Part shown: in pieces, positions 272 to 26,915 of the stretch
Position numbering within the stretch: the stretch's first letter is position 1
Layout of the letters: every line of letters begins with the position of its first letter
Source: Escherichia phage vB_EcoP_K
Length of the DNA stretch: 37,775 bases
Sequence record: NC_047809.1
Direction: 5' to 3' (one strand)
Made by a program: the position numbers and the translations under genes
The notes under the pieces: model-generated
The model's database searches: none
What the model saw: only the letters and a program-made list of their open reading frames with translations
What the model was told of the DNA's origin: nothing

Positions 272-1009
272 ATGCCTGTAATTAGACAAACCAGTAAAGT
301 AGGTCATATGATGGAAGATGTGGCCTTCCAGATTATTGATAGTAAGCTGGAAGCGGTAAACTTGTGTATGCGAGCTATTGGTCGTGAGGGTGTGGATTCT
401 CTCGACTCAGGTGACTTGGACGCAGAAGATGCAAGCAAGATGATCGACATCGTATCCCAGCGATTCCAGTACAACAAAGGAGGTGGCTGGTGGTTCAATC
501 GTGAACCAAACTGGCAGATTGCACCTGATACCAATGGTGAAGTCAATCTACCTAACAACTGCCTAGCAGTATTGCAGTGTTATGCTTTGGGTGAGAAGAA
601 AGTACCCATGACTATGCGAGCAGGTAAGCTCTACTCTACATGGAGTCATACCTTTGATATGCGTAAGCATGTGAATGCTAATGGTATGATTCGTCTTACC
701 TTACTTACCTTACTTCCATATGAGCATCTACCTACTAGTGTAATGCAGGCTATTGCCTATCAAGCTGCTGTAGAGTTTATTGTGTCTAAGGATGCAGATC
801 AGACTAAGCTAGCCACTGCACAGCAGATTGCCACTCAGCTTCTAATGGATGTGCAATCAGAACAAATGTCACAAAAGCGATTGAATATGCTTGTGCATAA
901 TCCTACGCAGCGTCAGTTCGGTATTATGGCAGGTGGTTCTCAGAATGCACCTGCTTACTCTCATTCACCATATGACAGTTGGGCACTTCGTCCGTGGGAG
1001 GATCGTTAA
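272..1009 (+). CDS. Tail tubular protein A (T7 gp11-like)
   Basis: AGGAGGG upstream of ATG 272; product has ...IGREGVDSLDSGD...GGGWWFN... resembling the N-terminal region of T7 gp11; position between capsid and gp12 homologue. Start uncertain (272 or 308). Confidence 0.65.
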   Translation: MPVIRQTSKVGHMMEDVAFQIIDSKLEAVNLCMRAIGREGVDSLDSGDLDAEDASKMIDIVSQRFQYNKGGGWWFNREPNWQIAPDTNGEVNLPNNCLAVLQCYALGEKKVPMTMRAGKLYSTWSHTFDMRKHVNANGMIRLTLLTLLPYEHLPTSVMQAIAYQAAVEFIVSKDADQTKLATAQQIATQLLMDVQSEQMSQKRLNMLVHNPTQRQFGIMAGGSQNAPAYSHSPYDSWALRPWEDR

Positions 1010-3408
1010 TGGAAGTACAAGGTTCATTAGGGAGGCAAATCCAAGGGATTAGCCAGCAACCACCAGCGGTACGTCTTGATGGCCAATGTACGACTATGGT
1101 GAACATGGTCCCTGATGTAGTGAATGGGACTCAATCCCGCATGGGTACAACTCACATTGCTAAGCTCTTGGATGAAGGTACAGATAATATGGCAACGCAC
1201 CATTATCGCAGGGGTGAGGGGGATGAAGAGTATTTCTTCACCTTAAAGAAGGGGCAAGTGCCAGAGATATTTGATAAGCATGGACGCAAGTGCAATGTCA
1301 CCTCTCAAGATGCACCTATGACCTACCTTTCTGAAGTTGTTAACCCTAGGGAAGATGTGCAATTCATGACTATAGCTGATGTTACTTTTATGCTTAACCG
1401 TAGGAAAGTGGTTAAAGTTAGTAATAGGAAGTCACCTAAAGTTGGAGATAAAGCCATTGTGTTTTGTGCATATGGTCAATACGGTACATCTTATTCTATC
1501 ATAATTAATGGAACTACAGCTGCTAGTTTTAAAACACCAGATGGGGGAAGTGCAGAACATGTTGAACAAATACGAACGGAACGTATCACTTCTGAATTGT
1601 ACTCCAAGTTGCAGCAATGGAGTGGTGTGAATGACTATGAAATACAAAGAGATGGTACGAGCATATTTATAAAGAGACGCGATGGTAAAAGTTTCACAGT
1701 AACAACTACCGATGGTGCAAAAGGTAAGGACTTAGTGGCTATCAAGAATAAAGTTAGCTCTACTGACCTACTCCCTTCTCGTGCGCCTGCTGGTTATAAA
1801 GTACAAGTGTGGCCTGCTGGCAGCAAACCTGAGTCTCGTTACTGGCTGCAAGCTGAGCCTAAAGAGGGAAACCTTGTGTCTTGGAAAGAAACAATAGCTG
1901 CTGATGTATTACTTGGGTTTGATAAAGGCACAATGCCTTACATTATTGAACGTACAGGTATCATCGACGGCATAGTTCAATTCAAGATAAGACAAGGTGA
2001 TTGGGAAGATCGTAAAGTAGGGGATGACTTGACTAACCCTATGCCCTCTTTTATTGATGAGGAAGTACCCCAGACAATAGGTGGAATGTTCATGGTGCAG
2101 AACCGCCTATGCTTTACAGCAGGTGAAGCGGTTATTGCTTCTCGTACATCATACTTCTTCGATTTCTTTCGTTATACGGTTATCTCTGCATTGGCAACTG
2201 ACCCATTTGATATTTTCTCAGATGCTAGTGAGGTCTACCAGCTAAAACATGCAGTGACCTTAGATGGCGCTACCGTGTTGTTCTCTGATAAGTCACAATT
2301 TATACTGCCAGGCGATAAGCCTTTAGAGAAGTCAAATGCATTGCTTAAGCCTGTTACAACATTTGAAGTGAACAATAAAGTGAAGCCAGTAGTAACGGGT
2401 GAATCAGTAATGTTTGCCACTAATGATGGTTCTTACTCTGGTGTACGAGAGTTCTATACAGACTCTTATAGTGACACTAAGAAGGCACAAGCAATCACAA
2501 GTCATGTGAATAAACTCATCGAAGGTAACATTACCAACATGGCAGCAAGCACCCATGTTAACAGGTTACTTGTCACTACCGATAAGTATCGTAACATAAT
2601 CTACTGCTACGATTGGTTATGGCAAGGAACAGACCGTGTACAATCAGCATGGCATGTATGGAAGTGGCCTATAGGTACAAAGGTGCGAGGTATGTTTTAT
2701 TCTGGTGAATTACTTTACCTGCTCCTTGAGCGAGGAGATGGCGTATATCTGGAGAAGATGGACATGGGTGATGCACTAACCTACGGTTTGAATGACCGCA
2801 TCAGAATGGATAGGCAAGCAGAGTTAGTCTTCAAGCATTTTAAAGCAGAAGATGAATGGGTGTCTGAACAGCTTCCTTGGACTCCTACTAACCCAGAGCT
2901 TTTGGATTGCATCTTAATAGACGGATGGGATTCATATATTGGTGGTTCTTTCCTATTCAAATACAACCCCGGTGATAACACCTTGTCTACAACCTTTGAT
3001 ATGCATGATAGCCACGTAAAAGCGAAGGTTATTGTTGGTCAGATTTACCCTCAAGAGTTTGAACCAACACCTGTAGTTATCAGAGATAGGCAAGACCGTG
3101 TATCCTATATTGATGTACCTGTTGTGGGGTTGGTTCACCTTAATCTTGATATGTATCCTGATTTCTCCGTGGAGGTTAAGAATGTGAAGAGTGGTAAAGT
3201 ACGCAGGGTGCTAGCGTCAAACCGCATAGGTGGCGCTCTCAACAATACAGTAGGTTATGTTGAACCGAGAGAGGGTGTCTTCAGATTCCCACTGAGAGCT
3301 AAGAGCACTGATGTTGTTTATCGTATTATTGTAGAGTCACCTCACACATTCCAGCTTCGTGATATTGAGTGGGAAGGAAGCTACAATCCAACCAAAAGGA
3401 GGGTCTAA
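1009..3408 (+). CDS. Tail tubular protein B (T7 gp12-like), 799 aa
   Basis: Start ATG overlaps gp11 stop (TAATG) with GGGAGGA upstream; N-terminus MEVQGSLGRQIQGISQQP resembles T7 gp12 N-terminus (..GGISQQP..); size and synteny. Confidence 0.85.
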   Translation: MEVQGSLGRQIQGISQQPPAVRLDGQCTTMVNMVPDVVNGTQSRMGTTHIAKLLDEGTDNMATHHYRRGEGDEEYFFTLKKGQVPEIFDKHGRKCNVTSQDAPMTYLSEVVNPREDVQFMTIADVTFMLNRRKVVKVSNRKSPKVGDKAIVFCAYGQYGTSYSIIINGTTAASFKTPDGGSAEHVEQIRTERITSELYSKLQQWSGVNDYEIQRDGTSIFIKRRDGKSFTVTTTDGAKGKDLVAIKNKVSSTDLLPSRAPAGYKVQVWPAGSKPESRYWLQAEPKEGNLVSWKETIAADVLLGFDKGTMPYIIERTGIIDGIVQFKIRQGDWEDRKVGDDLTNPMPSFIDEEVPQTIGGMFMVQNRLCFTAGEAVIASRTSYFFDFFRYTVISALATDPFDIFSDASEVYQLKHAVTLDGATVLFSDKSQFILPGDKPLEKSNALLKPVTTFEVNNKVKPVVTGESVMFATNDGSYSGVREFYTDSYSDTKKAQAITSHVNKLIEGNITNMAASTHVNRLLVTTDKYRNIIYCYDWLWQGTDRVQSAWHVWKWPIGTKVRGMFYSGELLYLLLERGDGVYLEKMDMGDALTYGLNDRIRMDRQAELVFKHFKAEDEWVSEQLPWTPTNPELLDCILIDGWDSYIGGSFLFKYNPGDNTLSTTFDMHDSHVKAKVIVGQIYPQEFEPTPVVIRDRQDRVSYIDVPVVGLVHLNLDMYPDFSVEVKNVKSGKVRRVLASNRIGGALNNTVGYVEPREGVFRFPLRAKSTDVVYRIIVESPHTFQLRDIEWEGSYNPTKRRV

Positions 3409-4133: not shown

Positions 4134-7081
4134 TGGCAATTGAGCGACAAGCAGTACAAGGTCTGCCACAAGTGCAGGCCACTTCTCCTAATGTCATGAC
4201 CTTTGCACCTCAGCAAGTTGGAGGTGTGGAGGCTGGCGTAGCTTCTACCTCCGGTAGTCGATTTATCGAAGACCTTATTCGAGCAGCCAGCAGTGTAGCT
4301 GATGTTACCACTGGTATCCTTAATCAGAAGATTGAGGAAGATAAGGTTGTTCAAATGGAACGGGCATATAATGGATTAATGCCCTCTGAGGATGCAACTC
4401 GTGGTGGCGCTCGTGCTAACATGCTTGTCAAAGCTCAACTGCTGGCTAATGATGAAGCAGCACGAATGAAAGACATGGCTACTCGTTTCCAAGGAACGGA
4501 TGACGAGTGGACACAACTCATGGTCGATTCTCGTAATGAGATGCAGAATAAGCTGTTCCAGCAATACCCAGAGTTGCAAGGTGACAAAGATACTATGCGT
4601 ATGGTCACTAATGTCTTCCAAGAACAGCAGCCTCAGATTTGGGCTACACGAACCAAGCATAAACTTGACCGTGAACAAGCAGACCGTGAGGATACCTTTG
4701 ACGGGCGAGTGGCTTCTACTTGGGATTCTAATATTGACCCTGAGGCCTCTGGCTATGCTTTACAGGAACGAATCCGCGAAGGTCTGACTCAAGGATTACT
4801 ACCTGAACAGATGTACAAGAAGTTAGTCCAGCGGGCAATTTCACTTGCACAAGGTGGGGATGTTAGCATGGCTGAAGCCCTGAAGTATGTGAAGGACGAT
4901 AAGGGCGTTTCTGTTTATGCTAAGAATCCACAGCTTATCACAGCCATCACTAGTGGTAATGCAGTTTGGGCTAGGAATAATGTAGCTGATGTAACTCGTA
5001 TGTCTTTCGAAGTTAAAGAATCATACCTTGCAGGCGATTTAACTGATGAAGAATTATTGGAACGAGCACAGCACATTAATAATCTGACAGGTAACTCTGT
5101 CTTCTCTAATCCAGAGCTAGAGGCACTGATGCGCCAACGGGCTAAGCAGAATGCAGAGCTAGGTGCAATGCAGGATATGCGACGTGAGCTTTACTCCGAC
5201 CGCCTGACTGGCTTCCAAGGTAAGACTGATAAAGAGAAGAAGGCTTACATTGATGTTATCAAACAGGATAGCCAACTTTATGCAGACCAGCAAATCAAAC
5301 AACGTGGCTTGGACCCTTACAGTCAAGAGGCTGAAGCTATTCGTGGTGCAGTGGAAGTGCAGCGCCTGCAATTCATGAACTCCAAAGGCTTAGTGGATGA
5401 TACCTTTGAGTCTCGTATCAAAGCCATGGAATCTATGCTATCTCCTGAGCACTTTGCCAAGGGCGAACCACAGGAGTTGATGACTATTCGTCAGTTGTGG
5501 GAACAGTTGCCAGAAGAGAGCCGAGGTGTCTTTGGTGACACGGTGAATGGCTACATGGATAACTACAACACTGCACTACAAATGGGAGAGACACCTTTGC
5601 AGGCTGCAAGGTTTGCGCGTGAAGCACAGCAGAAATTCTCTCGTACTGAGAAGGAAAACAAGAAGTTCAACTCAGCTATTGGAGATGCACTGGATGAGGT
5701 ATCTGGTGCTGGCTGGTTTGATGGTAAAACCGAAGTGTCAGACTTAGGTAAAGCTATTGCGGAAGAAGAGTTACGAGCTAAGGCCAATATGCTGTGGTCT
5801 AGCGGTATGCGTAACATGGATTCTATCAAGAAGGCTTTAATTACTTGGGGCAATAAACGCTACACTCAATCAGAGGATGCAAAGACTTCAGGTGGCTATT
5901 TCATTAAAGGTGATTACACTTCTGCATCTGATATGCTTATGTCAGTTGGGAAAGGTGTAAACCCTACCGATGTCCCTCTGGCGCTTGGTAGGTATGTAGA
6001 AACACAGATGCCAGAATTGAAGAAGGAGCTTCAAGAGTGGGAAACTAAGGATGATGTGTACATTGATTACAATGAACAGAAAGGAACTTTTGTGATTCGT
6101 GCTGGTGCAGCAGGTCGCCCTCTTTCTGGAGTAATCCCTGTAACTTCTTTGGATACCACTTCACTACTGGATTCTGCCTATCAGAAGAAAGTAGAAGAAC
6201 GAGACAAAGGCGAGTATGTTCATCCCTATCGTACAGGTATCGGTGCACAAGAACCAATGCCAGCTAAGCCAACTGCCAAAGATATTGGTAAATTTGGACT
6301 AGCTAACTTCCTCATGTCTTCTGCTTTTGCTTCTGGTGAGAATCTGCCTTCTAACTTCGAGATTAACTATCGAGGTAATATGCAACAATTCTATGACAAG
6401 CTAGCTATGGATGAGAATAAAGATAAAGTTGGCTTTAATAAGGCAACTGGAACCTTTACTCCATATAAAGACGCTCACGGTGAGTCTATCGGTTACGGTC
6501 ATTTCTTAACGGAAGAAGAGAAGCGAAACGGGTATATTAAGATTGGCGATGAACTAGTTCCCTATCGAGGGTCTATGTCTCAGCTTACAGAGAGTAAGGC
6601 TCGCGCTCTTATGGAGCAAGATGCTAAGAAGCATGTGCCTCCTACTCGTGACTGGAAGATTCCGTTTGACCAGATGCATCCTGCACAGCAACGTGGCTTG
6701 ATGGATTTAACCTACAATTTAGGTAAAGGTGGAATCCAGAACTCACCGCGTGCTCTTGCTGCATTCAAAGCTGGTAAACTTACGGAAGGCTTTATCGAAA
6801 TGCTGGGTACTGCATCTAGTGAAGGTAAACGTGTTTCTGGCTTACTGAAGCGACGTGCTGAGGCTTACAATATGGCATCTGCTGGTGGTGTGCCTAAGAT
6901 TACCGAAGTGGAGACTCGTGAAGATGGCTCCATGTGGGTTAGATTTGGTGGCCCTATGCCAGCAGGTTCTGTCTCGGCATGGACTCATAAACTTATTGGC
7001 GCGGATGGTTGGTATCAGGTTTATGATGCTGCACCTACCAAGTTAGCTAAAGATTCTAAGGTAGGTAAAGTTAAATTGTAG
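4133..7081 (+). CDS. Internal virion (ejection) protein with C-terminal lysozyme-like muralytic domain, 982 aa
   Basis: Residues ~778-900 (nt ~6464-6830) carry YKDAHGESIGYGH...LMDLTYNLGKGG...ALAAFKAG resembling T4/P22-type lysozyme motifs (YKDTEGYYTIGIGH; ..IFNIGKSAFAGS..); size and position typical of podovirus core proteins. Confidence 0.7.
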   Translation: MAIERQAVQGLPQVQATSPNVMTFAPQQVGGVEAGVASTSGSRFIEDLIRAASSVADVTTGILNQKIEEDKVVQMERAYNGLMPSEDATRGGARANMLVKAQLLANDEAARMKDMATRFQGTDDEWTQLMVDSRNEMQNKLFQQYPELQGDKDTMRMVTNVFQEQQPQIWATRTKHKLDREQADREDTFDGRVASTWDSNIDPEASGYALQERIREGLTQGLLPEQMYKKLVQRAISLAQGGDVSMAEALKYVKDDKGVSVYAKNPQLITAITSGNAVWARNNVADVTRMSFEVKESYLAGDLTDEELLERAQHINNLTGNSVFSNPELEALMRQRAKQNAELGAMQDMRRELYSDRLTGFQGKTDKEKKAYIDVIKQDSQLYADQQIKQRGLDPYSQEAEAIRGAVEVQRLQFMNSKGLVDDTFESRIKAMESMLSPEHFAKGEPQELMTIRQLWEQLPEESRGVFGDTVNGYMDNYNTALQMGETPLQAARFAREAQQKFSRTEKENKKFNSAIGDALDEVSGAGWFDGKTEVSDLGKAIAEEELRAKANMLWSSGMRNMDSIKKALITWGNKRYTQSEDAKTSGGYFIKGDYTSASDMLMSVGKGVNPTDVPLALGRYVETQMPELKKELQEWETKDDVYIDYNEQKGTFVIRAGAAGRPLSGVIPVTSLDTTSLLDSAYQKKVEERDKGEYVHPYRTGIGAQEPMPAKPTAKDIGKFGLANFLMSSAFASGENLPSNFEINYRGNMQQFYDKLAMDENKDKVGFNKATGTFTPYKDAHGESIGYGHFLTEEEKRNGYIKIGDELVPYRGSMSQLTESKARALMEQDAKKHVPPTRDWKIPFDQMHPAQQRGLMDLTYNLGKGGIQNSPRALAAFKAGKLTEGFIEMLGTASSEGKRVSGLLKRRAEAYNMASAGGVPKITEVETREDGSMWVRFGGPMPAGSVSAWTHKLIGADGWYQVYDAAPTKLAKDSKVGKVKL

Positions 7082-7095
7082 TACCTAACTCAAGG

Positions 7096-7117
7096 CTTGT
7101 CTCACATGTGAGACAGG
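7096..7117 (+). promoter_or_regulatory. Conserved palindromic stem-loop, copy 1 (CTTGTCTCACATGTGAGACAGG), possible terminator or RNA processing site
   Basis: Near-perfect inverted repeat 15 nt after stop at 7081, followed by TCTTTAT; same motif recurs at 21711, 22888 and 27950. Confidence 0.45.
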
Positions 7118-7145
7118 TCTTTATGATAGGCACTATGGAGGAACT

Positions 7146-15984: not shown

Positions 15985-18420
15985 ATGATTCAAAGACTAG
16001 GTTCTTCATTAGTTAAATTCAAGAGTAAAATAGCAGGTGCAATCTGGCGTAACTTGGATGACAAGCTCACCGAGGTTGTATCGCTTAAAGATTTTGGAGC
16101 CAAAGGTGATGGTAAGACAAACGACCAAGATGCAGTAAATGCAGCGATGGCTTCAGGTAAGAGAATTGACGGTGCTGGTGCTACTTACAAAGTATCATCT
16201 TTACCTGATATGGAGCGATTCTATAACACCCGCTTCGTATGGGAACGTTTAGCAGGTCAACCTCTTTACTATGTGAGTAAAGGTTTTATCAATGGTGAAC
16301 TCTATAAAATCACGGATAACCCTTATTACAATGCTTGGCCTCAAGACAAAGCGTTTGTATATGAGAACGTGATATATGCACCTTACATGGGTAGCGACCG
16401 TCATGGTGTTAGTCGTCTGCATGTATCATGGGTTAAGTCTGGTGACGATGGTCAAACATGGTCTACTCCAGAGTGGTTAACTGATCTGCATCCAGATTAC
16501 CCTACAGTGAACTATCATTGTATGAGTATGGGTGTATGTCGCAACCGTCTGTTTGCCATGATTGAAACACGTACTTTAGCCAAGAACGCACTAACCAATT
16601 GTGCATTGTGGGATCGCCCTATGTCTCGTAGTCTGCATCTTACTGGTGGTATCACTAAGGCTGCAAATCAGAGATATGCAACAATCCATGTACCTGATCA
16701 CGGACTCTTCGTTGGTGATTTTGTTAACTTCTCTAACTCTGCGGTAACAGGTGTATCTGGTGATATGAAGGTTGCAACAGTAATAGATAAGGACAACTTC
16801 ACGGTTCTTACACCTAACCAGCAGACTTCAGATTTGAATAACGCTGGAAAGAGTTGGCACATGGGTACTTCTTTCCATAAATCTCCTTGGCGTAAGACAG
16901 ATCTTGGTCTAATCCCTCGTGTCACAGAGGTGCATAGCTTTGCTACTATTGATAACAATGGCTTTGTTATGGGCTATCATCAAGGTGATGTAGCTCCACG
17001 AGAAGTTGGGCTTTTCTACTTCCCTGATGCTTTCAATAGCCCATCTAATTATGTTCGTCGTCAGATACCATCTGAGTATGAACCAGATGCGGCAGAGCCA
17101 TGCATCAAGTACTATGACGGTGTATTGTACCTTATCACTCGTGGTACTTGTGGCGATCGACTAGGAAGCTCTCTGCATCGTAGTAGAGATATAGGTCAAA
17201 CTTGGGAGTCACTAAGATTTCCACATAATGTTCATCATACTACCTTACCTTTTGCTAAAGTAGGAGATGACCTTATTATGTTTGGTTCAGAACGTGCAGA
17301 AAATGAATGGGAAGCAGGTGCACCAGATGATCGTTACAAGGCATCTTATCCTCGTACCTTCTATGCACGATTGAATGTAAACAAGTGGAATGCAGATGAC
17401 ATTGAATGGGTTAACATCACAGACCAAATCTATCAGGGTGACATTGTGAACTCTAGTGTAGGTGTAGGTTCGGTAGTAGTTAAAGACAGCTACATTTACT
17501 ATATCTTTGGTGGAGAAAACCATTTCAACCCAATGACTTATGGTGACAACAAAGATAAAGACCCATTTAAAGGTCATGGACACCCCACTGATATATACTG
17601 CTATAAGATGCAGATTGCAAATGACAATCGTGTATCTCGTAAGTTTACATATGGTGCAACTCCGGGTCAGGCTATACCTACCTTCATGGGTACTGATGGT
17701 ATTCGTACTATTCCTGCTCCACTTCACTTATCAGGAGAGGTAGTTGCCGCAGATATGACTGTCGAACACCTTACCCTGAAGGCAAGTACAAGTGCTAATA
17801 TTCGCTCAGAGATGCTGATGGAAGGTGAATATGGGTTCATTGGTAAGACTATACCAACGGATAACCCAACTGCCCAACGTGTCATCATCTCTGGTGGAGG
17901 GGGTACAGCAGCAGATACCGGTGCGCAAATTACCTTACATGGAGCAGGTTCTAGTACTTCTAGACGCGCAGTATATAATGCCAATGAGCACTTGTTCCAA
18001 AGCGGGGCTATCATGCCATACAATGATAACGTGTATCCTGCTGGCGGCCCTCGTAATAGATTCACTACTATCCATCTTACAAGTGACCCTATTATTACGT
18101 CTGATGCCACTCATAAGTATGGATCACAAGGTATTGATGAGGGTGTACTAAAGGCATGGGGCAAGGTTGCCTTCAAGCAGTACAAGTTGATTGGAGAGAT
18201 GTCTAGTGGTGTGCATCACACTCACTTTGGTGTATTGGCACAAGACATTGTAGCTGCTTTTGCATCCGAAGGGTTAGATGCAATCGACTTCGGCATTGTC
18301 TCCTTCGAAGAAGGTCAGTTTGGTGTTAGATATAGTGAAATCTTAATCTTGGAGGCTGCTTATACTCGTTATCGTTTAGACAAGTTAGAGGAGATGTATG
18401 CCACTAATAAAACCAGTTAA
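15985..18420 (+). CDS. Endosialidase (endo-N-acetylneuraminidase) tailspike with C-terminal intramolecular chaperone domain, 811 aa
   Basis: AAGGAGG RBS; sialidase Asp-boxes SGDDGQTWS and SRDIGQTWES; C-terminal ..GVHHTHFGVLAQDIV..FGVRYSEILILEAAYTRYRLDKLEE.. typical of the autocleaved chaperone domain of phage endosialidases; 811 aa is the size I recall for the K1E enzyme. Confidence 0.9.
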   Translation: MIQRLGSSLVKFKSKIAGAIWRNLDDKLTEVVSLKDFGAKGDGKTNDQDAVNAAMASGKRIDGAGATYKVSSLPDMERFYNTRFVWERLAGQPLYYVSKGFINGELYKITDNPYYNAWPQDKAFVYENVIYAPYMGSDRHGVSRLHVSWVKSGDDGQTWSTPEWLTDLHPDYPTVNYHCMSMGVCRNRLFAMIETRTLAKNALTNCALWDRPMSRSLHLTGGITKAANQRYATIHVPDHGLFVGDFVNFSNSAVTGVSGDMKVATVIDKDNFTVLTPNQQTSDLNNAGKSWHMGTSFHKSPWRKTDLGLIPRVTEVHSFATIDNNGFVMGYHQGDVAPREVGLFYFPDAFNSPSNYVRRQIPSEYEPDAAEPCIKYYDGVLYLITRGTCGDRLGSSLHRSRDIGQTWESLRFPHNVHHTTLPFAKVGDDLIMFGSERAENEWEAGAPDDRYKASYPRTFYARLNVNKWNADDIEWVNITDQIYQGDIVNSSVGVGSVVVKDSYIYYIFGGENHFNPMTYGDNKDKDPFKGHGHPTDIYCYKMQIANDNRVSRKFTYGATPGQAIPTFMGTDGIRTIPAPLHLSGEVVAADMTVEHLTLKASTSANIRSEMLMEGEYGFIGKTIPTDNPTAQRVIISGGGGTAADTGAQITLHGAGSSTSRRAVYNANEHLFQSGAIMPYNDNVYPAGGPRNRFTTIHLTSDPIITSDATHKYGSQGIDEGVLKAWGKVAFKQYKLIGEMSSGVHHTHFGVLAQDIVAAFASEGLDAIDFGIVSFEEGQFGVRYSEILILEAAYTRYRLDKLEEMYATNKTS

Positions 18421-18553
18421 GCAAGCTGCTGTACTCCAGAACACAGAAGAGCTTATTCAATCAGGACGTGACCCTAAGCAGGCATATGCCATTGCCAAGG
18501 ATGTTCAACGTAGAGTATTGAGTAAGACCTCTGCATCGTCTGCGAAGCAGTAA
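18398..18553 (+). CDS. Possible small ORF (51 aa) overlapping the 3' end of the endosialidase gene
   Basis: ATG with GAGGAG upstream; MPLIKPVKQAAVLQNTEELIQSGRDPKQAYAIAKDVQRRVLSKTSASSAKQ; no homology assessable. Confidence 0.25.
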   Translation: MPLIKPVKQAAVLQNTEELIQSGRDPKQAYAIAKDVQRRVLSKTSASSAKQ

Positions 18554-18613
18554 CACTTAGTCTGCACAAGGGCTGGCTTAGGTTGGCCCTTAGTGCAACC
18601 CAAAGGAGGTTTG

Positions 18614-18769
18614 ATGATTTGGATTCATACTTATGGAGTCGGCCCATTCAAACGTAAGGTACTCAGGAAGATACATGACACTGAAGAGTCTGCACTGGCT
18701 AGCCAGAAGGTTCTTGGTGGAACTGTACAGGCTTACCTGAAGCAACCCAATGGATTCGACTTAGTGTAA
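18614..18769 (+). CDS. Possible small ORF (51 aa)
   Basis: AAAGGAGG RBS 5 nt upstream of ATG; MIWIHTYGVGPFKRKVLRKIHDTEESALASQKVLGGTVQAYLKQPNGFDLV. Confidence 0.35.
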   Translation: MIWIHTYGVGPFKRKVLRKIHDTEESALASQKVLGGTVQAYLKQPNGFDLV

Positions 18770-18829
18770 TCAAATGAGGTAACATGAAAGACCTACTGTT
18801 AGCCCTCTTATGCACAGCATGTATCTATG

Positions 18830-18887
18830 GCCCACACCCTCATGCCCTGTCAAACGCTCAGGAATGGCCCTAAAACGGCCTGTGTAA
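18830..18887. repeat. 58-bp direct repeat, copy 1
   Basis: GCCCACACCCTCATGCCCTGTCAAACGCTCAGGAATGGCCCTAAAACGGCCTGTGTAA; identical copy at 19266-19323. Confidence 0.9.
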
Positions 18888-19025
18888 CAATAGATACAGA
18901 GCTAGGATAGGCTAGATTGGCTAGGTTTAGGGTGTTCCTCCTACTGCATCTTATCACTATTACCTACTCTCAGCGGTCTACCGACCGCGACCTAATTGCA
19001 TCTTATAGCTTTAGCTATGCAATCA

Positions 19026-19160
19026 CTAAGGTCTGGCACTAAGACTAACTAAGGTACACTACTAAGTTGATACTAAGCTAAGCACTAAGGCTTTAACTAA
19101 GGCAACCCACTAAGGCTAACCTAAGCCATCCATCAAGGAATAACCTAAGGTACACGTGAG
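19026..19160. repeat. Array of about 11 degenerate heptamers (A/C)CTAAG(G), genome-terminus-like
   Basis: CACTAAGG, AACTAAGG, TACTAAG.. recur at short irregular spacing; analogous to the CCTAAAG-type repeats of T7 genome ends; four more copies at 19325-19420. Confidence 0.7.
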
Positions 19161-19183
19161 CGAGTGAACGGAGCGCAAGCGGA

Positions 19184-19239
19184 GTGAGGAGCAGTGAGTG
19201 AGGAGCAGTGAGTGAGGAGCAGTGAGTGAGGAGCAGTGA
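19184..19239. repeat. Tandem repeat, 4 x 14 bp (GTGAGGAGCAGTGA) plus partial copies
   Basis: Exact tandem copies visible in GGAGTGAGGAGCAGTGAGTGAGGAGCAGTGAGTGAGGAGCAGTGAGTGAGGAGCAGTGAGTGAAGCG. Confidence 0.9.
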
Positions 19240-19265
19240 GTGAAGCGTAGCGAAACGAACAGATA

Positions 19266-19323
19266 GCCCACACCCTCATGCCCTGTCAAACGCTCAGGAA
19301 TGGCCCTAAAACGGCCTGTGTAA
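19266..19323. repeat. 58-bp direct repeat, copy 2
   Basis: Identical to 18830-18887; copies are 436 bp apart and bracket the heptamer and tandem-repeat region. Confidence 0.9.
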
Positions 19324-19583
19324 GCCCTAAGCGGTTGCACTAAGGCAATCACCTTGTCCAATACTAAGGCGCGCCCTAGCGCTTCCTAGGTGTTCTCCTT
19401 GTGCAGCCACTAAGAGCAGACCTCGGCAAGCCCTAGGCCACCCGTCGAGCTTCCTGCGGCAGCAGGTTGAAGACGGACCAGCCCAGCCCAATTCCCAAGC
19501 CAACCGCAGCGCGTTTAAATAGTCACGGGCAAGAGTGCTACATAGTGCAACGTAAAGTATTAGGCTCAATATGGGTCACGTGT

Positions 19584-19706
19584 ATGATGCCTATTGGCTA
19601 TACTGATACAGAGGCTATCTTCTGCACCGAAAGGGATGCAAAGAAGTTTATCTCTAAGCGTAGAAAAGCTGACTCTTACCAACCCAGAACTATTAAGGTG
19701 AACTAA
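19584..19706 (+). CDS. Short ORF reading into the primase start (open from 19467; start ambiguous), possible 5'-truncated gene remnant
   Basis: Frame open for 79 codons ending TAATG overlap with primase ATG; first in-frame ATG pair at 19584 lacks a clear RBS. Confidence 0.25.
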   Translation: MMPIGYTDTEAIFCTERDAKKFISKRRKADSYQPRTIKVN

Positions 19707-21694
19707 TGGCTATTATTAATAACATCCCGTGCCCTGCCTGCCAGAAGAATGGACACGATAAATCCGGCAATCATCTCATGATATTTGATGATGGTGCTGG
19801 CTATTGTAACCGTGGTCATTTCCACGATAACGGCAAGCCTTACTATCATAAGCCAGATGGTGGCATCGAGATCACCGAGTTGCCTATTACTGGCAATATC
19901 AAATATACACCTTCTCAATTCAAAGAGATGGAGAAGGAAGGGAAGATAAGCGACCCTAAGTTACGCGCCATCGCACTTGGTGGCATGCGTATGAAAGACC
20001 GATGGGAGGTCATGAATGAGCAAGAAAGGGCAGACCAAGAAGCAGAGTGGAAACTTGATGTTGAATGGTTCCTCACGCTTAAGCGTAAGAATCTTGTTTC
20101 CCGACACATTCGCGGCGACATTTGCGCATTGTATGATGTACGTGTCGGACACGATGAAGAGGGTAGAGTCTCACGGCATTACTATCCACGCTTCGAGAAA
20201 GGTGAACTAGTAGGCGCTAAGTGTCGCACATTACCTAAAGACTTTAAGTTTGGTCATTTAGGTAAACTCTTTGGTATGCAAGATCTTTTCGGGATGAATA
20301 CTTTGTCTCACGTGTTAGACAAGGGAAGACGAAAGGATCACTTGCTCATTGTCGGCGGCGAACTGGATGCACTAGCAGCACAGCAAATGCTCCTTGATTC
20401 TGCCAAGGGTACTAAGTGGGAAGGCCAGCCTTACCATGTATGGTCTGTCAATAAAGGTGAGTCTTGCCTTGAAGAGATAGTACAGAACCGTGAACACATC
20501 GCCCAATTTAAGAAGATTATATGGGGTTTTGATGGAGATGAGGTAGGGCAGAAGCAGAATCAGCAAGCGGCTCGCCTGTTTCCTGGCAAATCCTATATCC
20601 TTGAATACCCTTCTGGTTGCAAAGATGCTAACAAGGCATTGATGGCTGGCAAGGCTAAAGAGTTTGTTGATGCTTGGTTTAATGCCAAGTCATCTGATGA
20701 AGTCTTTGGTAGCCATATTAAATCTATCGCATCTCAAAGGGATAAGCTCAAGGCTGCACGTCCAGAGCAAGGGCTATCATGGCCTTGGCCTAAGCTGAAC
20801 AAGGTAACGCTAGGTATTCGTAAGAACCAGCTTATCATTGTAGGTGCAGGCTCTGGTGTAGGTAAGACTGAGTTCCTCCGCGAAGTGGTTAAACATCTTA
20901 TTGAAGAACATGGTGAATCTGTAGGCATCATTTCTACAGAAGACCCGATGGTCAAGGTGTCCCGTGCTTTTATCGGTAAGTGGATTGATAAGCGCATTGA
21001 GTTACCGCCAACCAATGACCCGAAAGAAGACGGATACCGTGAGGTGTTCGACTATACTGAGGAAGAGGCTAATGCCGCCATTGATTATGTAGCTGATACA
21101 GGGAAGCTGTTTGTAGCTGACCTAGAGGGTGACTATTCTATGGAGAAGGTAGAGCAAACTTGCCTAGAGTTTGAGGCTATGGGCATTTCTAATATCATCA
21201 TTGATAACTTAACGGGGATTAAATTAGATGAGCGTGCTTTTGGTGGGAAGGTTGGTGCACTTGATGAATGCGTCAAACGAATTGGTACTATCAAAGATCG
21301 ACATGCGGTTACGATTTTCCTTGTCTCTCACCTTACACGTCCTCCGGCAAACCGTACCCAACACGAAGAAGGTGGCGAAGTTATCCTTTCTGACTTCCGA
21401 GGCTCAGGCGCTATCGGATTCTGGGCATCTTACGCCTTGGGGATTGAGCGTAATACAAGAGCTGAAACGCTTGATGAAAGGACTACCACGTACATCTCAT
21501 GTGTCAAAGACCGCGACCAAGGTATCTACACTGGAACCAAGGTCATGCTTAAGGGTGACATTCAAACCGGACGTTTAATGGAACCACAAGCTCGTACTAA
21601 GTCATTTGATACAGGTGAAGCAAGGCAACAAGAAGTACCTGATTTACCAGACACTATAGAAGGGACTAACTTCGATGAAGAAAGTGAGTTCTGA
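19706..21694 (+). CDS. DNA primase-helicase (T7 gp4-like), 662 aa
   Basis: N-terminal zinc-binding CPACQKNGHD...CNRGHFH; helicase Walker A GAGSGVGKTEF; acidic C-terminus ending ..FDEESEF as in T7 gp4. Confidence 0.9.
   Translation: MAIINNIPCPACQKNGHDKSGNHLMIFDDGAGYCNRGHFHDNGKPYYHKPDGGIEITELPITGNIKYTPSQFKEMEKEGKISDPKLRAIALGGMRMKDRWEVMNEQERADQEAEWKLDVEWFLTLKRKNLVSRHIRGDICALYDVRVGHDEEGRVSRHYYPRFEKGELVGAKCRTLPKDFKFGHLGKLFGMQDLFGMNTLSHVLDKGRRKDHLLIVGGELDALAAQQMLLDSAKGTKWEGQPYHVWSVNKGESCLEEIVQNREHIAQFKKIIWGFDGDEVGQKQNQQAARLFPGKSYILEYPSGCKDANKALMAGKAKEFVDAWFNAKSSDEVFGSHIKSIASQRDKLKAARPEQGLSWPWPKLNKVTLGIRKNQLIIVGAGSGVGKTEFLREVVKHLIEEHGESVGIISTEDPMVKVSRAFIGKWIDKRIELPPTNDPKEDGYREVFDYTEEEANAAIDYVADTGKLFVADLEGDYSMEKVEQTCLEFEAMGISNIIIDNLTGIKLDERAFGGKVGALDECVKRIGTIKDRHAVTIFLVSHLTRPPANRTQHEEGGEVILSDFRGSGAIGFWASYALGIERNTRAETLDERTTTYISCVKDRDQGIYTGTKVMLKGDIQTGRLMEPQARTKSFDTGEARQQEVPDLPDTIEGTNFDEESEF
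21642..21664 (+). promoter_or_regulatory. SP6-class phage RNAP promoter (within 3' end of primase-helicase gene)
   Basis: ATTTACCAGACACTATAGAAGGG; two mismatches to the consensus upstream half; +1 G at 21659. Confidence 0.6.
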
Positions 21695-21710
21695 TTAGTG
21701 TATTTATCGG

Positions 21711-21734
21711 GCTTGTCTCACATGTGAGACAGGC
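21711..21734 (+). promoter_or_regulatory. Conserved palindromic stem-loop, copy 2 (GCTTGTCTCACATGTGAGACAGGC)
   Basis: 17 nt after stop at 21694; same core as 7096, 22888, 27950. Confidence 0.45.
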
Positions 21735-21771
21735 TCTTATTAAGTATATATTAAATAACTGGAGATTGATT

Positions 21772-22455
21772 ATGTATAAATTAGTATTGAATGCAGGTGA
21801 TTATGTTCGTAACATCAATGAAGCCTCACGTCGTTATCGTTGCCGTGGTGTAGTGGATCGTATAAGTGAGAACATGTATCATGTAGAATATGAGGATGGT
21901 ATTAAGGCTTCTTACCACAAGAAAACAGCACATAAATATCTTGAAAAGATTGTAGAGATAAACAATCAATGTAAGTGCATACATGATGAGGTTTGCGATA
22001 AATGTGCTCGCCAGATGCTTAAGAATTTCCTAGCTCCTCTTTATTATGGTGCTGGTCCTCAAACACTAGCAGAGTACATGGCAGAAAAGAAAACCACACT
22101 CAAGAAAGAGCGTCGCAATGTAATCACTGGTAAGACTCAAAGTGAAATGATTAAGCAATGTGGCACTGCATTAGGTGTTACACAGTTCAATACTCGTGCA
22201 TTGGGTAAATCCACAGGGCAAGCTATGGTGAAAATTGGTGAAGCTATGATGCACCCAAATGTGCCTGTGCGAATCTTGGATGTTGACCATGCAATCACAG
22301 AGCATGGCACACCACGGCGTGTAGCTAATAATCATTTCGCCGACACTATAGAAGGTATTATTCGTAAGCAAGGGTTGAAGGGTCTTCACATCTTAAATGG
22401 TGAAGAATTACTGTACCTACCTATCGTTACTGAAGAAACCTACGTGAATATCTAA
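21772..22455 (+). CDS. Hypothetical protein, 227 aa
   Basis: GGAG 7 nt upstream of ATG; coding-like composition; contains Cys/His cluster CKCIHDEVCDKCARQ; no recognisable family. Confidence 0.5.
   Translation: MYKLVLNAGDYVRNINEASRRYRCRGVVDRISENMYHVEYEDGIKASYHKKTAHKYLEKIVEINNQCKCIHDEVCDKCARQMLKNFLAPLYYGAGPQTLAEYMAEKKTTLKKERRNVITGKTQSEMIKQCGTALGVTQFNTRALGKSTGQAMVKIGEAMMHPNVPVRILDVDHAITEHGTPRRVANNHFADTIEGIIRKQGLKGLHILNGEELLYLPIVTEETYVNI
22334..22356 (+). promoter_or_regulatory. SP6-class phage RNAP promoter-like site (within gene 21772-22455)
   Basis: ATTTCGCCGACACTATAGAAGGT; conserved core GACACTATAGAAG, three mismatches upstream. Confidence 0.5.
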
Positions 22456-22485
22456 GGAGTTAATCATGACTAAGGTATTAATTAT

Positions 22486-22683
22486 ATGCGTGGACCTCAT
22501 AAATGCTATGCAGTTGTAGCACCAGATGGTGTCAAGACATATGGTACTTCAAAGGGGTTTGCATTAATAGGTGCCAGTCTTAGTGCAAGTTTTCAGATGG
22601 AACTTTTCGGTCATTGGACTGAAAAAGAGTTCCGTGAGGAGTTTAATGTAATCGGCAGCTTTATGGTGAAACATGCAAAATAA
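22486..22683 (+). CDS. Hypothetical small protein, 65 aa
   Basis: ORF with coding-like composition; weak RBS; a 17-codon ORF with a strong RBS (AAGGAG, ATG 22467) lies just upstream. Confidence 0.35.
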   Translation: MRGPHKCYAVVAPDGVKTYGTSKGFALIGASLSASFQMELFGHWTEKEFREEFNVIGSFMVKHAK

Positions 22684-22882
22684 ACACAGTCTTAAGATGT
22701 TTGATGGTCACGAAGACCTGCAAGCACAAATTACTAACCAAGCCTTCCTGTTTGCACAGTTAACTATGGCTGAAGCAAAGAAGAATAGCCTGACGCGCGA
22801 GCAAGTTATCAAAGAGGCAACTTGGGAGCCACACCAAGGCAAATACATGGGCCAGAAATTAACTGTAACACGCAGTCGATAA
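22673..22882 (+). CDS. Hypothetical small protein, 69 aa
   Basis: ORF overlapping the previous stop; followed directly by palindromic stem-loop copy 3. Confidence 0.35.
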   Translation: MQNKHSLKMFDGHEDLQAQITNQAFLFAQLTMAEAKKNSLTREQVIKEATWEPHQGKYMGQKLTVTRSR

Positions 22883-22887
22883 GTAAA

Positions 22888-22915
22888 GGGTTGTCTCACA
22901 CGTGAGACAGCCTTT
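22888..22915 (+). promoter_or_regulatory. Conserved palindromic stem-loop, copy 3 (GGGTTGTCTCACACGTGAGACAGCC) followed by TTT
   Basis: 6 nt after stop at 22882; stem extends to about 11 bp. Confidence 0.45.
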
Positions 22916-23033
22916 CATCATATTGATTGGAGGTGCATTATGCCACGTGATTATGATTCTGATTGGGATTTCCAAGATTCAATGAACTCAAAACCTGAAC
23001 GTTCAGATGACTACTACGAAACAGAGGCAATGT

Positions 23034-23252
23034 ATGAAAGCTATTAAAGTCAGTAAGGTTTGCTCTTGCGGTAAAGGTTATCGCAGTCGTATTGATGGTA
23101 AGTGTGGGCATTGCAGGTCTAAGAAAGAGGCTGCTTTGTTTGATAAGTACCACAATGAATTAGCATATAACTATCCTCATCTAACACCTAATTCTTTATT
23201 AGGACTTGGTTATAGGGTTAAATACTTTGGAGCAATCTATGAAATCAATTGA
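23034..23252 (+). CDS. Small zinc-ribbon-like protein, 72 aa
   Basis: CSCGKGY...CGHCRSKK (CxC..CxxC); GAGG upstream; overlaps DNAP start by 14 nt. Confidence 0.4.
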   Translation: MKAIKVSKVCSCGKGYRSRIDGKCGHCRSKKEAALFDKYHNELAYNYPHLTPNSLLGLGYRVKYFGAIYEIN

Positions 23253-25785
23253 TTGGAAGAAGGAAGCAGAAGGCCGCATCTTAGTGATGGATTCTGAGGC
23301 TAAAGGCCTGCTGGATGCTATCCGATATGGCCACCGCGAAGATGTGCACATCATTTGCTGCATGGATTTGCTTACTACAGAGGAGTTCCTCTTCTTTGAC
23401 CCATACGAGATGCGTGACCCTGAAGCAAGAGAACGCCTAAAAGAATGGGAAGGCCATCAAGATGGAACATTGGTTGACGGTGTTAACTTCCTTAAGCACT
23501 GCGAAGCCATCGTCTCACAGAACTTCCTAGGGTACGACGGCCTTCTATTTGAGAAAGCATTCCCTGATATCTGGAAAGGCTTTAACTATACCGAGAGACG
23601 CGGCAAGGGCAGACTCCGCGCTGACCTGTGTCCGGTACGCGTCATGGATACGCTGGTCATGAGTCGCCTGTTAAACCCCGATAGACGCCTCCCTCCGCAA
23701 GCATACGCCAAAGGCATGGGTAACGTAGCCCCTCACTCAATTGAGGCGCACGGCATTCGTATAGGCCGTTATAAGCCGGAGAACGAGGATTGGTCTAAAC
23801 TAACTGACCACATGGTACATCGTGTACGCGAGGACGTGGCGATAGGCCGTGACCTATTCCTCTGGCTATTTAACGGAGAATGGACGGAGCACAAACGCCG
23901 TGGCGTGAATAAACGCACTGGCCTAGGTATTGAGACAGCCTTCCACATGGAGTCCATTGTGGCGCTGGAGATGAGCCGTCAGGCCGAGCGTGGATTCCGT
24001 CTGGATATAGATAAAGCATTAGCACGATGCGAGGAATTGGACGCTAAGATTGATGAGACAGTCGCAGCGTTCCGTCCGCACATGCCTATGCGTATCAAGT
24101 CTAAACCTTTTAAACCGGAAGAAAAGAATGAAGTATGCCAACGCGCAAATGAGTATGGAGCTAGCAACAATATACCTACTGTCCTTGACCCCTCTCACTT
24201 TCTTCACGCAGAGAGACGAGGAGATCGCAAGACAGTATGGAGTGTCACTACTAAGTCTGGTGATTGGTCGGCTAGCGTCAAGAAAGACTTTCCTCACCTT
24301 AGAGGAAACCGTAATGACACGCCAAGCATCAAGTGGATTGGCGCTTACTCGCCTGTTACTTTCGAAGAGATTCCCTTGGGTAACAGGGATACAGTTAAGC
24401 AAGTGCTCTATGATTATGGATGGAAAGGTGTTGAATTTAACGATACCGAGCAAGCGCATCTCGATGAGCATGGCGTATTACCCAAGCCTTGGAGTGGGAA
24501 GATAAATGAAAAGTCCCTTACTTTATGGCAAGAGAGAGCCGCACGTGAAGGTAAAACAGTCCCTGATTGGTGCTTGGGTATCGCTGCATGGTACATACTC
24601 GTATCCCGTCGTGGTCAGATCCTCAACCGTGGTGACGTTGAAGCCTTCGACCAGAAGGGGGTGTGGCCTTCGCAAGCTGGTATACGAAAGTGTCGCGGCC
24701 TTGTACCTGTAGCATTTAACAAGGAGTTAGGAATCAATGCGCAGCAATACTACGAAAGGTACGGATGCTGGCCTACGTCAGACAAGGATGACGGAGAATG
24801 GCGTGTGCCAGCTATTGCTATTAGTATTGGAACTTCTACGTTCCGTATGCGTCATCGTAACGTGGTTAATATTCCTGCCCGTGGTTTGTATCCTTTACGT
24901 GATTTATTCATAGCCGGTAAAGGTAAGCTAATCCTTGGTTGTGATGGTGCTGGTCTTGAACTACGTGTACTGTCTCACTTCATGAATGACCCTGAATATC
25001 AAGATATTGTACTGCATGGTGACATTCACACCCATAATCAAATGAAGGCTGGTCTTCCTAAGCGTGACATGGCGAAGACATTTATATATGCCTTCCTATA
25101 TGGGTCTGGTATAGCTAACCTTGCAGCAGTATGTGGTGTTACTGAGGAAGAAATGGAGGAAGTTGTGGCAAGATTTGAGGTTGAACTACCATCTCTTGCA
25201 CGTCTTCGTGAGAATGTTATCGCACAAGGTAACAAGTTTGGCTACCTACAAGCACCTGATGGTCATTGGGGTCGCATCCGTATGTCTGGTGGTGAACTTA
25301 AAGAGCACACTATGCTTAACGTACTACTCCAGATGACTGGTTCTCTGTGTATGAAATACGCATTGGTCAGAGCGTTTGCAGTGATGCGCAAGGAAGGTGT
25401 GGCCTTAGATAGCATGGGAAACCCTTGCGGTATAGCTAACGTGCACGATGAAATCCAGATGGAAGTCCCTGAAGATGAGGTCTTGTATCTCAACTACGAC
25501 TTGCCTTTCACCTTAGAAGGGTTCGAAACAGAGAAGGCTGCTGTGAAAGCAGTGTTCGATGCAGAGGAGAAACGTGTTCATGTGGATTCTGAAGGACGTA
25601 TGTGGTCTGCTGCAAATCTCGTTAGTGTTGATGCTGATGCTGGTGTACTTCATTGCCAGCGTCGTTATCACCGTGCAGGGCATATCATTGCCGATGCAAT
25701 GACTTGGGCAGGTCAGTACCTGAAGATGCGTTGTCCGATGGCAGGTGAGTATAAGATTGGTGCAAGTTGGAAGGAAACACACTGA
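23239..25785 (+). CDS. DNA polymerase, family A (T7 gp5-like), 848 aa
   Basis: GGAG 6 nt upstream; 3'-5' exonuclease-type motif ILVMDSEAKGL; polymerase motif B ..RDMAKTFIYAFLYGSG.. and motif C ..VHDEIQMEV.. Confidence 0.9.
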   Translation: MKSIDWKKEAEGRILVMDSEAKGLLDAIRYGHREDVHIICCMDLLTTEEFLFFDPYEMRDPEARERLKEWEGHQDGTLVDGVNFLKHCEAIVSQNFLGYDGLLFEKAFPDIWKGFNYTERRGKGRLRADLCPVRVMDTLVMSRLLNPDRRLPPQAYAKGMGNVAPHSIEAHGIRIGRYKPENEDWSKLTDHMVHRVREDVAIGRDLFLWLFNGEWTEHKRRGVNKRTGLGIETAFHMESIVALEMSRQAERGFRLDIDKALARCEELDAKIDETVAAFRPHMPMRIKSKPFKPEEKNEVCQRANEYGASNNIPTVLDPSHFLHAERRGDRKTVWSVTTKSGDWSASVKKDFPHLRGNRNDTPSIKWIGAYSPVTFEEIPLGNRDTVKQVLYDYGWKGVEFNDTEQAHLDEHGVLPKPWSGKINEKSLTLWQERAAREGKTVPDWCLGIAAWYILVSRRGQILNRGDVEAFDQKGVWPSQAGIRKCRGLVPVAFNKELGINAQQYYERYGCWPTSDKDDGEWRVPAIAISIGTSTFRMRHRNVVNIPARGLYPLRDLFIAGKGKLILGCDGAGLELRVLSHFMNDPEYQDIVLHGDIHTHNQMKAGLPKRDMAKTFIYAFLYGSGIANLAAVCGVTEEEMEEVVARFEVELPSLARLRENVIAQGNKFGYLQAPDGHWGRIRMSGGELKEHTMLNVLLQMTGSLCMKYALVRAFAVMRKEGVALDSMGNPCGIANVHDEIQMEVPEDEVLYLNYDLPFTLEGFETEKAAVKAVFDAEEKRVHVDSEGRMWSAANLVSVDADAGVLHCQRRYHRAGHIIADAMTWAGQYLKMRCPMAGEYKIGASWKETH

Positions 25786-25901
25786 TGGACAGGTTTGATA
25801 TTGTTTGCCTATTCTCCACCTTCTTTCTTATATTCCTTATGCTTGCTTGCTATGGAAGTATGCGATTAGATATACCTGATGAAGAGGAGGGTTACGATTG
25901 A
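25785..25901 (+). CDS. Possible small membrane protein, 38 aa
   Basis: ATG overlapping DNAP stop (TGATG); hydrophobic core CLFSTFFLIFLMLACYG. Confidence 0.3.
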   Translation: MDRFDIVCLFSTFFLIFLMLACYGSMRLDIPDEEEGYD

Positions 25902-25999
25902 TGCAGGCATCTTTTATTATTCTTGGAGTCATATTATTTATGGTAGTATTCTGGGCTTTCTCTGGCATTGACCCAGATTGTGATGGTAACTACGACTGA
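25901..25999 (+). CDS. Possible small membrane protein, 32 aa
   Basis: ATG overlapping preceding stop; hydrophobic FIILGVILFMVVFWAF. Confidence 0.3.
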   Translation: MQASFIILGVILFMVVFWAFSGIDPDCDGNYD

Positions 26000-26008
26000 G
26001 TTATACTC

Positions 26009-26030
26009 AAGGTCACTTACGAGTGGCCTT
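26009..26030 (+). terminator. Stem-loop (8 bp, one G-U) after the small ORFs; weak terminator candidate
   Basis: AAGGTCAC TTACGA GTGGCCTT followed by T-poor tail (TATGAA); so low confidence. Confidence 0.3.
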
Positions 26031-26067
26031 TATGAATAACTTATTCCTACTTATTTAGTCTAACATG

Positions 26068-26090
26068 ATTTACTGGACACTATAGAAGGA
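26068..26090 (+). promoter_or_regulatory. SP6-class phage RNAP promoter
   Basis: ATTTACTGGACACTATAGAAGGA; +1 G at 26085. Confidence 0.75.
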
Positions 26091-26154
26091 AAGCCTAGGT
26101 AATCTAGGTTTATAAGGTAGTATAGGTAATTAAATAAATATAGGAGATATAAAT

Positions 26155-26532: not shown

Positions 26533-26538
26533 GGAGTT

Positions 26539-26859: not shown

Positions 26860-26915
26860 TAGGTCGGCTTAGTTCGGCCTATGATTGTGTAGTGTAACAA
26901 TAGGAGACTAAATAA

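Follow-up and report, generated by a model that had tools for sequence, protein, structure and literature searches.

The window analysed here is the whole 37,775-nucleotide sequence of Escherichia phage vB_EcoP_K (NC_047809.1), a K1E/K1-5-like coliphage genome of the SP6 group (Autographiviridae, Molineuxvirinae) that is present as a circularly permuted copy. A 2-kb sample of it matches Escherichia phage vB_EcoP_B at 99.8% identity and other Vectrevirus genomes, including K1E, at 95–98%. Five positions in the window carry a palindrome of the form TGTCTCAC-RY-GTGAGACA. Exact copies lie at 7098–7115, 21714–21731 and 22892–22909, and copies with one mismatch lie at 27951–27968 (AGTC...) and at 20304–20321. 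A search with TGTCTCACRYGTGAGACA that allowed up to three mismatches returned these five matches, against a mean of 0.06 and a maximum of 1 in 100 dinucleotide-preserving shuffles. The near-perfect palindrome that an earlier note had described in four intergenic copies is thus real; all four were recovered and their earlier coordinates bracket them correctly, but a fifth, at 20304 inside the primase/helicase gene (19706–21694), had been missed. This fifth copy is also the exception to the proposed placement just after stop codons, which holds for the remaining four. Intergenic copies are in clear excess, both in the window (4 of 5, P = 2e-4) and in the annotated relative K1-5, where intergenic sequence makes up 8.2% of the genome and holds 7 of the 8 copies (binomial P = 2e-7).

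Compared with vB_EcoP_B, the window lacks approximately 6.2 kb comprising every early gene, gene 8 and the gene for the RNA polymerase (18420–19706 region), and three of the eight palindrome copies of this complete relative lie inside the missing stretch. An inverted piece of the genome left end was found at approximately 18827–19513, and it stops beside the position that the left-end palindrome occupies in relatives (558 in K1-5). The terminal-repeat sequence GCCCACACCCTCATGCCCTGTCAAACGC... occurs twice, at 18831 and 19268, and GAGCAGTGAGTGAG is repeated in tandem at approximately 19180–19245. The rearrangement at 18420–19706 reflects either a phage variant made defective by deletion or an error of assembly at the genome ends.

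Three variants of the palindrome core occur across the subfamily Molineuxvirinae. The form TGTCTCAC..GTGAGACA is found in Vectrevirus and Era103, TGTCCAAC..GTTGGACA in phD2B, PP1, K1-ULIP33 and PM85, and TGTCTAAC..GTTGGACA in SP6, where it places a U.G pair in the sense RNA; the first two forms are related by a compensatory change at two base pairs. A degenerate scan of eight complete genomes detected 8–9 copies each in SP6, K1-5, vB_EcoP_B, Era103, phD2B, PP1 and K1-ULIP33 and one copy only in PM85, and exact matches to the three core forms also turned up in IMG/VR (58, 119 and 28 stretches). Counting the motif genome-wide and in relatives, as had been proposed, therefore extends it from the window to the subfamily, and the unusually strict sequence conservation remarked upon earlier is borne out by a core that is near-invariant across genera. 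The copies fall into syntenic classes located at the left end (class a), right after the RNA polymerase gene (one or two copies, abutting phage promoters), within the primase gene, 3′ of the primase gene (class d, window 21714), 3′ of gene 11 (class e, window 22892), ahead of the gene-18 promoter (class f, window 27951) and 3′ of gene 35 (class g, window 7098). Copies restricted to particular lineages also occur within the RNA polymerase gene, the ligase gene and gene 23.

No regulatory feature is annotated at palindrome sites in the GenBank records of SP6, K1-5 and K1E. Rfam gave no match at the gathering score over the whole window, and a permissive Rfam search of 20200–28100 gave a single miRNA match at chance level. 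A literature search for the exact 18-mers found nothing, and in the open literature on SP6 or K1-5 together with RNase III or palindromes we found no description of the element, although the original SP6 and K1-5 genome papers may include these hairpins, whether as terminators (PMC11347151) or as RNase III sites.

Folding of the copy contexts had been suggested as a check, and with 35 nt of flank included it revealed two-part hairpins at 7098, 21714 and 22892. In each of these a lower stem is separated by a small asymmetric internal loop from a 12–13 bp upper stem that is topped by the palindrome. The three hairpins, all on the plus strand, span 7074–7139 (class g, between homologues of genes 35 and 36), 21691–21757 (class d, after the primase/helicase gene) and 22868–22933 (class e, after gene 11), with z scores of −4.6 to −6.1, and the same architecture was not found at 27951 or 20304. 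The lower stem of the class-g hairpin pairs GUAGU.ACCUA with UAGG.CACUA(U), its internal loop reads A-C-UC / UAU-G-A, and its upper stem of 13 bp holds the palindrome 7098–7115; the minimum free energy (MFE) is −26.1 kcal/mol (z −4.55). The class-d hairpin has a 9-bp lower stem, a 2x4 internal loop and a 12-bp upper stem with the palindrome 21714–21731, and folds at −24.0 kcal/mol (z −5.99) versus −11.1 on the opposite strand. The class-e hairpin shows the dot-bracket geometry of class g, with the palindrome at 22892–22909, and folds at −26.6 kcal/mol (z −6.05) versus −14.2 on the opposite strand. We refer to these three copies, and to their homologues in other genomes, as embedded, and to the copies that lack a lower stem as orphans.

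Comparison of homologous sites supported the predicted pairing. In class g, 98.4% of cells were paired and 8 of 22 pairs had changed on both sides; the covariation score was 0.348 versus 0.160 in shuffled data, with 0 of 500 shuffles reaching the observed value, and in controls with slid partners pairing fell to 33–47%. Both stems also covary in class d (20 homologous sites) and in class e (24 homologous sites; e.g. pair 28–77 as CG/UA/AU and pair 42–63 as GC/CG).

The embedded copies also carry a strand signature. A covariance model built from 20 SP6-group class-g sites only (R1) scored the site at 7074–7139 with 82.7 bits in the sense orientation versus 34.8 bits antisense. Departures from perfect symmetry in embedded copies are of the U.G type on the sense strand, bar one A.C at K1-ULIP33 8914, and their flanks lengthen the stem by G.U pairs that exist in the sense RNA only (A.C on the other strand). 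The embedded copies of PM85 have a centre of 3 nt, which a hairpin would tolerate but which would be unexpected at a dimer site of fixed spacing. The suggestion that the element is the operator of a dimeric protein therefore sits poorly with the embedded copies, given the asymmetric TCTAAC/GTTGGA of SP6 with its sense-strand U.G, the PM85 centre and the sense-only flanking pairs, and it retains a possible application to the orphans at 27951 and 20304.

On its 3′ side (21732–21744) the class-d hairpin reads GGCUCUUAUUAAG, which contains GCUCUUA, the core of the lambda and rrn boxA; the resemblance is probably a coincidence. We also considered whether the U.G asymmetry flips strand around the presumed replication origin, and rejected this as inconsistent, the class-a copies showing both orientations.

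The hairpins of the SP6 group share the dot-bracket pattern of the RNase III sites of phage T7, which likewise are two-part hairpins in the sense mRNA between genes, often beside phage promoters. The likeness extends to individual nucleotides: the flanks ACUCAAGG...CUUUAU/G (a slash within a motif marks the cut) are common to T7 R0.3, R0.5, R1.1 and R18.5 and to window 7074–7139, T7 R4.7 carries the close variant CUCAAGG...CCUUCAU/GA, and the internal-loop letters together with the flanks (ACUCAAGG...CCUUUAU/GA) are identical between T7 sites and window 7074–7139 and 25991–26048. The T7 sequences were extracted at what we take to be the RNase III site coordinates of Dunn and Studier (1983). 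When T7 was searched with R1, exactly six matches were obtained (29–44 bits), all in the sense orientation and corresponding to R18.5, R0.3, R1.1, R0.5, R6.5 and R4.7, and nothing was found beyond these six of the ten RNase III sites. In the reverse direction, a model built from six T7 sites only (R2) gave just two matches in the window, at 25991–26048 (44.2 bits, E 2e-8) and at 7074–7139 (38.6 bits, E 7e-7). R2 also matched the class-g site in each of the six other SP6-group genomes searched that have the palindrome there, and gave no match in Era103, whose class-g site has a different upper stem. The copies at 21714 and 22892 were not retrieved by R2, and the high R1 scores of classes d (45 bits) and e (51.3 bits) arise partly because they share the core with class g, so that the assignment of these two classes rests on architecture and covariation.

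The second window site retrieved by R2 lacks the palindrome. It spans 25991–26048 on the plus strand, is organized as ACUCAAGG-UCACUUACGAGUGG-CCUUUAU/GAA, and is identical in K1-5 and SP6. Its upper stem is T7-like (GGUCACU-UACG-AGUGGCC) and resembles that of T7 R1.1; R1 scored it at 33.9 bits and its MFE is −18.6 kcal/mol (z −4.33). By analogy with T7, cleavage is predicted between 26033 and 26034. The site lies approximately 40 nt upstream of a phage promoter, and a half-palindrome, TTAGTCTAACATG (approximately 26057–26069), stands right before that promoter.

From these comparisons we consider it likely that SP6-group phages have in the palindrome a conserved stem-loop module whose embedded copies are T7-type RNase III sites. 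Homology to the T7 processing sites is assigned with high confidence at 7098, and the copies at 21714 and 22892 probably belong to the same kind of site. Of the activities offered earlier for the element, RNase III-type processing accordingly suits three copies, on the basis of architecture, covariation and strand asymmetry (and, at 7098, of the model searches in both directions), and does not suit 27951 and 20304, which have no lower stem. In this reading, the palindrome at 7098, 21714 and 22892 forms the upper stem and tetraloop of a hairpin in the sense mRNA, above a lower stem of 8–9 bp. Host RNase III, whose action here we infer by homology, would then make a single cut in the 3′ side of the internal loop. 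The cut is predicted by analogy with T7 at 7124/7125 (CUUUAU/GAU) and at 22918/22919 (CUUUCAU/CAU), and at the class-d site it would be expected in the 3′ loop UUAU at approximately 21737–21741. Such a cut would split the polycistronic phage transcript between genes and leave a stable hairpin on the 3′ end of the upstream message, which may protect it from exonucleases. T7 itself has ten RNase III sites, frequently paired with promoters, and grows without RNase III (PMC6938266), so the fitness role of such sites may be small; the sequence of T7 R1.1 has been employed elsewhere as an 'RNase III site' (PMC6615863). If the reading is correct, a T7-type RNase III site has been conserved down to the letters of its loop across two subfamilies of Autographiviridae.

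Elements of this kind are known from T7; the SP6-group variant has a palindromic upper stem of fixed sequence, which can also occur alone. RNase III requires no fixed upper-stem sequence. The upper stem spans 12–13 bp in SP6-group sites versus 9–10 bp in T7, and it contains a palindrome of 16–18 nt that is near-invariant across sites and genera, whereas the upper stems of T7 vary; copies of the core without a scaffold are likewise a feature of the SP6 group that sets it apart from T7. Because T7 upper stems vary and the site at 25991 uses another stem, the invariance of the core goes beyond what RNase III would need, and the RNase III mechanism leaves both this invariance and the copies at 27951 and 20304 unaccounted for. 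The conservation of these two copies at the nucleotide level suggests a second, sequence-specific role of the core; the alternatives to an additional reader are homogenization by recombination or the reuse of a convenient hairpin.

The intergenic orphan AGTCTCACGTGTGAGACA (27951–27968, plus strand) begins at the final nucleotide of the stop codon that closes the 27732–27950 open reading frame. It has neither a lower stem nor a flank extension, forms a 6-bp hairpin only (z −1.05) and is matched by the covariance models only locally. A second hairpin follows at approximately 27973–27996 and includes part of the phage promoter at 27983–28003, in that upstream sequence pairs with promoter positions of approximately −12 to −4 (GGUGUCC...GGACAC). 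This hairpin covaries with promoter type in nine homologous sites, including SP6 and PP1, and the pairing implies that the promoter would be sequestered in a hairpin in read-through RNA. T7 R6.5 and R13 contain promoter sequences within the sites, much like the hairpin at the gene-18 promoter.

The in-gene orphan TGTCTCACGTGTTAGACA (20304–20321, plus strand) is read L-S-H-V-L-D within the primase/helicase gene. It showed no significant fold (z −0.66), and no larger conserved RNA structure was found around the primase copy, RNAalifold recovering only a short stem, made of five pairs in the core and two in the flanks, that closes an 8-nt loop. Its 3′ half departs from the consensus in CTCAC-type phages because GTGAGACA would create an in-frame TGA. 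Among 21 distinct contexts the primase copy displays zero synonymous variation in four codons, while all 31 of the 31 flanking codons vary. The in-gene copies share one reading frame (S-N/H-x-L-D), and the change from Asn to His follows the core type of the genome, in the primase of K1-5 and in the RNA polymerase and ligase of Era103. An origin of the in-gene copies by insertion of 18 bp was rejected, since protein alignments indicated substitution within variable loops.

Core and scaffold can occur independently. Of the palindromes in Era103 at least seven are orphans; three of these abut promoters and none has the two-part structure, and the class-g site of this phage uses another upper stem. 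In PM85 almost all orphans have been lost, and the remaining one keeps a 2-nt centre versus the 3 nt of the embedded copies. Orphans in general are symmetric, have a 2-nt centre and show departures of both kinds. In Era103 (L065) two palindromes 17 nt apart (7021–7073) flank a truncated promoter-like sequence, ATTAACCACCCAGGA, directly 3′ of a canonical terminator after the RNA polymerase gene. A resemblance between the 3′ half of the palindrome (TTGGACA) and the K1-5 promoter core (CTGGACA) was judged a coincidence, as it fails for phD2B and Era103.

The same palindrome was also encountered outside the SP6 group, in a cassette of lambdoid prophages located between the Rz/lysis and HNH/terminase genes and antisense to the late operon. 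Instances include an E. coli prophage contig (L019, 10440–10980), Shigella phage SfIV (L209, 505–750) and many IMG/VR loci (e.g. L072, L094, L098 and L108). The cassette comprises, in order, a T7/T3-like promoter (e.g. AATACGACTCACTAATGGGGAGG), the palindrome, an SP6- or K1-5-type promoter, a ribosome-binding site and a 40-codon open reading frame (M...DLFRFTLSLIHFYLTGSPLSF); the second promoter is of SP6 type in SfIV (ATTTAGGTGACACTTTAGAAG) and of K1-5 type in E. coli (ATTTACTGGACACTATAGAAG), and in L019 the cassette is tandemly duplicated. One cassette context recurs 42 times in IMG/VR; with a 601-nt query, coverage of at least 80% was obtained in 69 complete E. coli genomes. The cassette resembles a device that would be transcribed by the incoming RNA polymerase when a T7-like or SP6-like phage infects, perhaps as a defence; a literature search for it found no description.

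The invariance of the core could be explained if it were, additionally or instead, the binding site of a sequence-specific phage or host protein, acting either on double-stranded DNA (as an operator or roadblock by a subset of the phage promoters) or on the RNA hairpin, with the RNase III scaffolds having been built around a ready-made hairpin. We regard such a factor as a tentative possibility, plausible enough to be weighed in detail yet well short of even chances. The constancy of the core across genera while the flanks diverge is what a binding site would predict, and orphans lie 0–17 nt upstream of phage promoters in K1-5, SP6, Era103, PM85, phD2B and PP1. The frozen synonymous sites of the primase copy, the Asn-to-His changes that track core type, the retention of at least seven orphans by Era103 despite the other stem at its class-g site, and the 2-nt centre of the PM85 orphan point the same way, as does the invariance of the palindrome in the prophage cassettes despite widely differing flanking promoters. 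Against a binding factor, no Pfam DNA-binding domain was detected among 10 small proteins of the middle region, the spacing to promoters is variable within its 0 to 17 nt, SP6 copies are asymmetric in the DNA, and PM85 manages nearly without orphans. Two core types moreover coexist within one genome (at K1-5 9569 and at the class-g site of ACG-C91), which argues against a strictly co-evolving reader, and the RNA version is weak for the orphans, none of which folds significantly.

A more elaborate form of the binding-factor idea, to which we give a rather low probability, is that the palindrome is the recognition site of an SP6-group phage or enterobacterial host factor with a regulon of approximately eight sites per genome, and that, placed between the T7-type and SP6-type promoters of lambdoid prophages, it also serves in a prophage device that responds to infection by such phages. 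The regulon would then take in the promoters after the RNA polymerase gene, the left end, the primase, RNA polymerase and ligase genes and the RNase III sites, and the factor could couple transcription, RNA processing or replication in phages without the T7 lysozyme switch. The invariant core, the frozen in-gene copies and the promoter-abutting copies could in this way reveal a regulatory layer new to T7-like phages, and at present they are a curiosity.

Alternatively, the core may have no function of its own and may be a repeat that, in a highly recombinogenic phage, ectopic recombination or gene conversion keeps uniform from one RNase III site to another and that mosaic exchange spreads between phages, with the orphans and in-gene copies as by-products. 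Core types are indeed mixed in keeping with linkage, in that sites located between 6 and 15 kb share a type and the distant class-g site can differ; the element also occurs in unrelated prophages, and the RNase III sites of T7 likewise share much of the upper stem. However, the in-gene copies are substitutions and not insertions, conversion tracts shorter than 18 bp and flanked by 4–11 nt of identity would be needed, orphans are syntenic in distant genera, and the primase copy has been kept across genera with its synonymous sites frozen, all of which makes this explanation unlikely. Promoter/stem-loop (PeSL) cassettes of T4-type phages, which shuffle between phage genomes, offer a partial parallel. 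They too consist of a short conserved hairpin and a promoter at gene boundaries, and the palindrome is also found in unrelated genomes, the lambdoid prophages; they differ in promoter type, the in-gene palindromes are again substitutions, and mobility of the palindrome is putative.

The weakest explanation, which we consider improbable, is that the hairpins act in intrinsic (class I) termination, or as places where the phage or host RNA polymerase pauses: they follow stop codons and are followed by U-containing stretches (CUUUAU, CUCUUAUU), SP6 is said to have seven RNA polymerase terminators (PMC11347151), and terminators predicted in UAB_Phi78 and SP6 lie behind the RNA polymerase gene and behind genes without known function (PMC4837284), but the U residues pair with upstream A or sit in the internal loop and leave no free 3′ U-tract, the lower stem forms only once the 'tail' has been transcribed, which is a misfit with termination, and in-gene copies would truncate essential messages. 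None of the copies passed a terminator scan that did detect a terminator-like hairpin at 28486–28513, the SP6 terminator used in experiments, t5, is another hairpin, which has a true U-tract and is itself followed by UUCUUUUGUUU, and canonical terminators stand approximately 10 nt upstream of a palindrome in phD2B, PP1 and Era103, so that the earlier proposal of phage-polymerase terminators finds little support. Rho-independent terminators have been putatively assigned in SP6-like genomes (Dobbins et al, 2004, as cited in PMC11347151 and PMC4837284). In the citing accounts they sit after the RNA polymerase gene and after genes whose function is unknown, and from these positions they are probably in part the hairpins described here, which have the architecture of RNase III sites and no free U-tract. 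Should RNase III processing be correct, hairpins of SP6-like phages that have been described as putative terminators would be mRNA processing sites, and transcript maps, expression models and engineered therapeutic phages (K1E, K1-5, SP6 and relatives) would need to be reread in that light.

The 18-mer (TGTCTCACGCGTGAGACA or ...ACATGT...) was additionally found in clusters of three in two IMG/VR contigs of high G+C content that are not SP6-like (L035, 85 kb, at 2060–2160; L037, 129 kb, at 963–3020). In L037 the copies lie within longer G+C-rich palindromes, and the clusters probably represent an unrelated repeated element.
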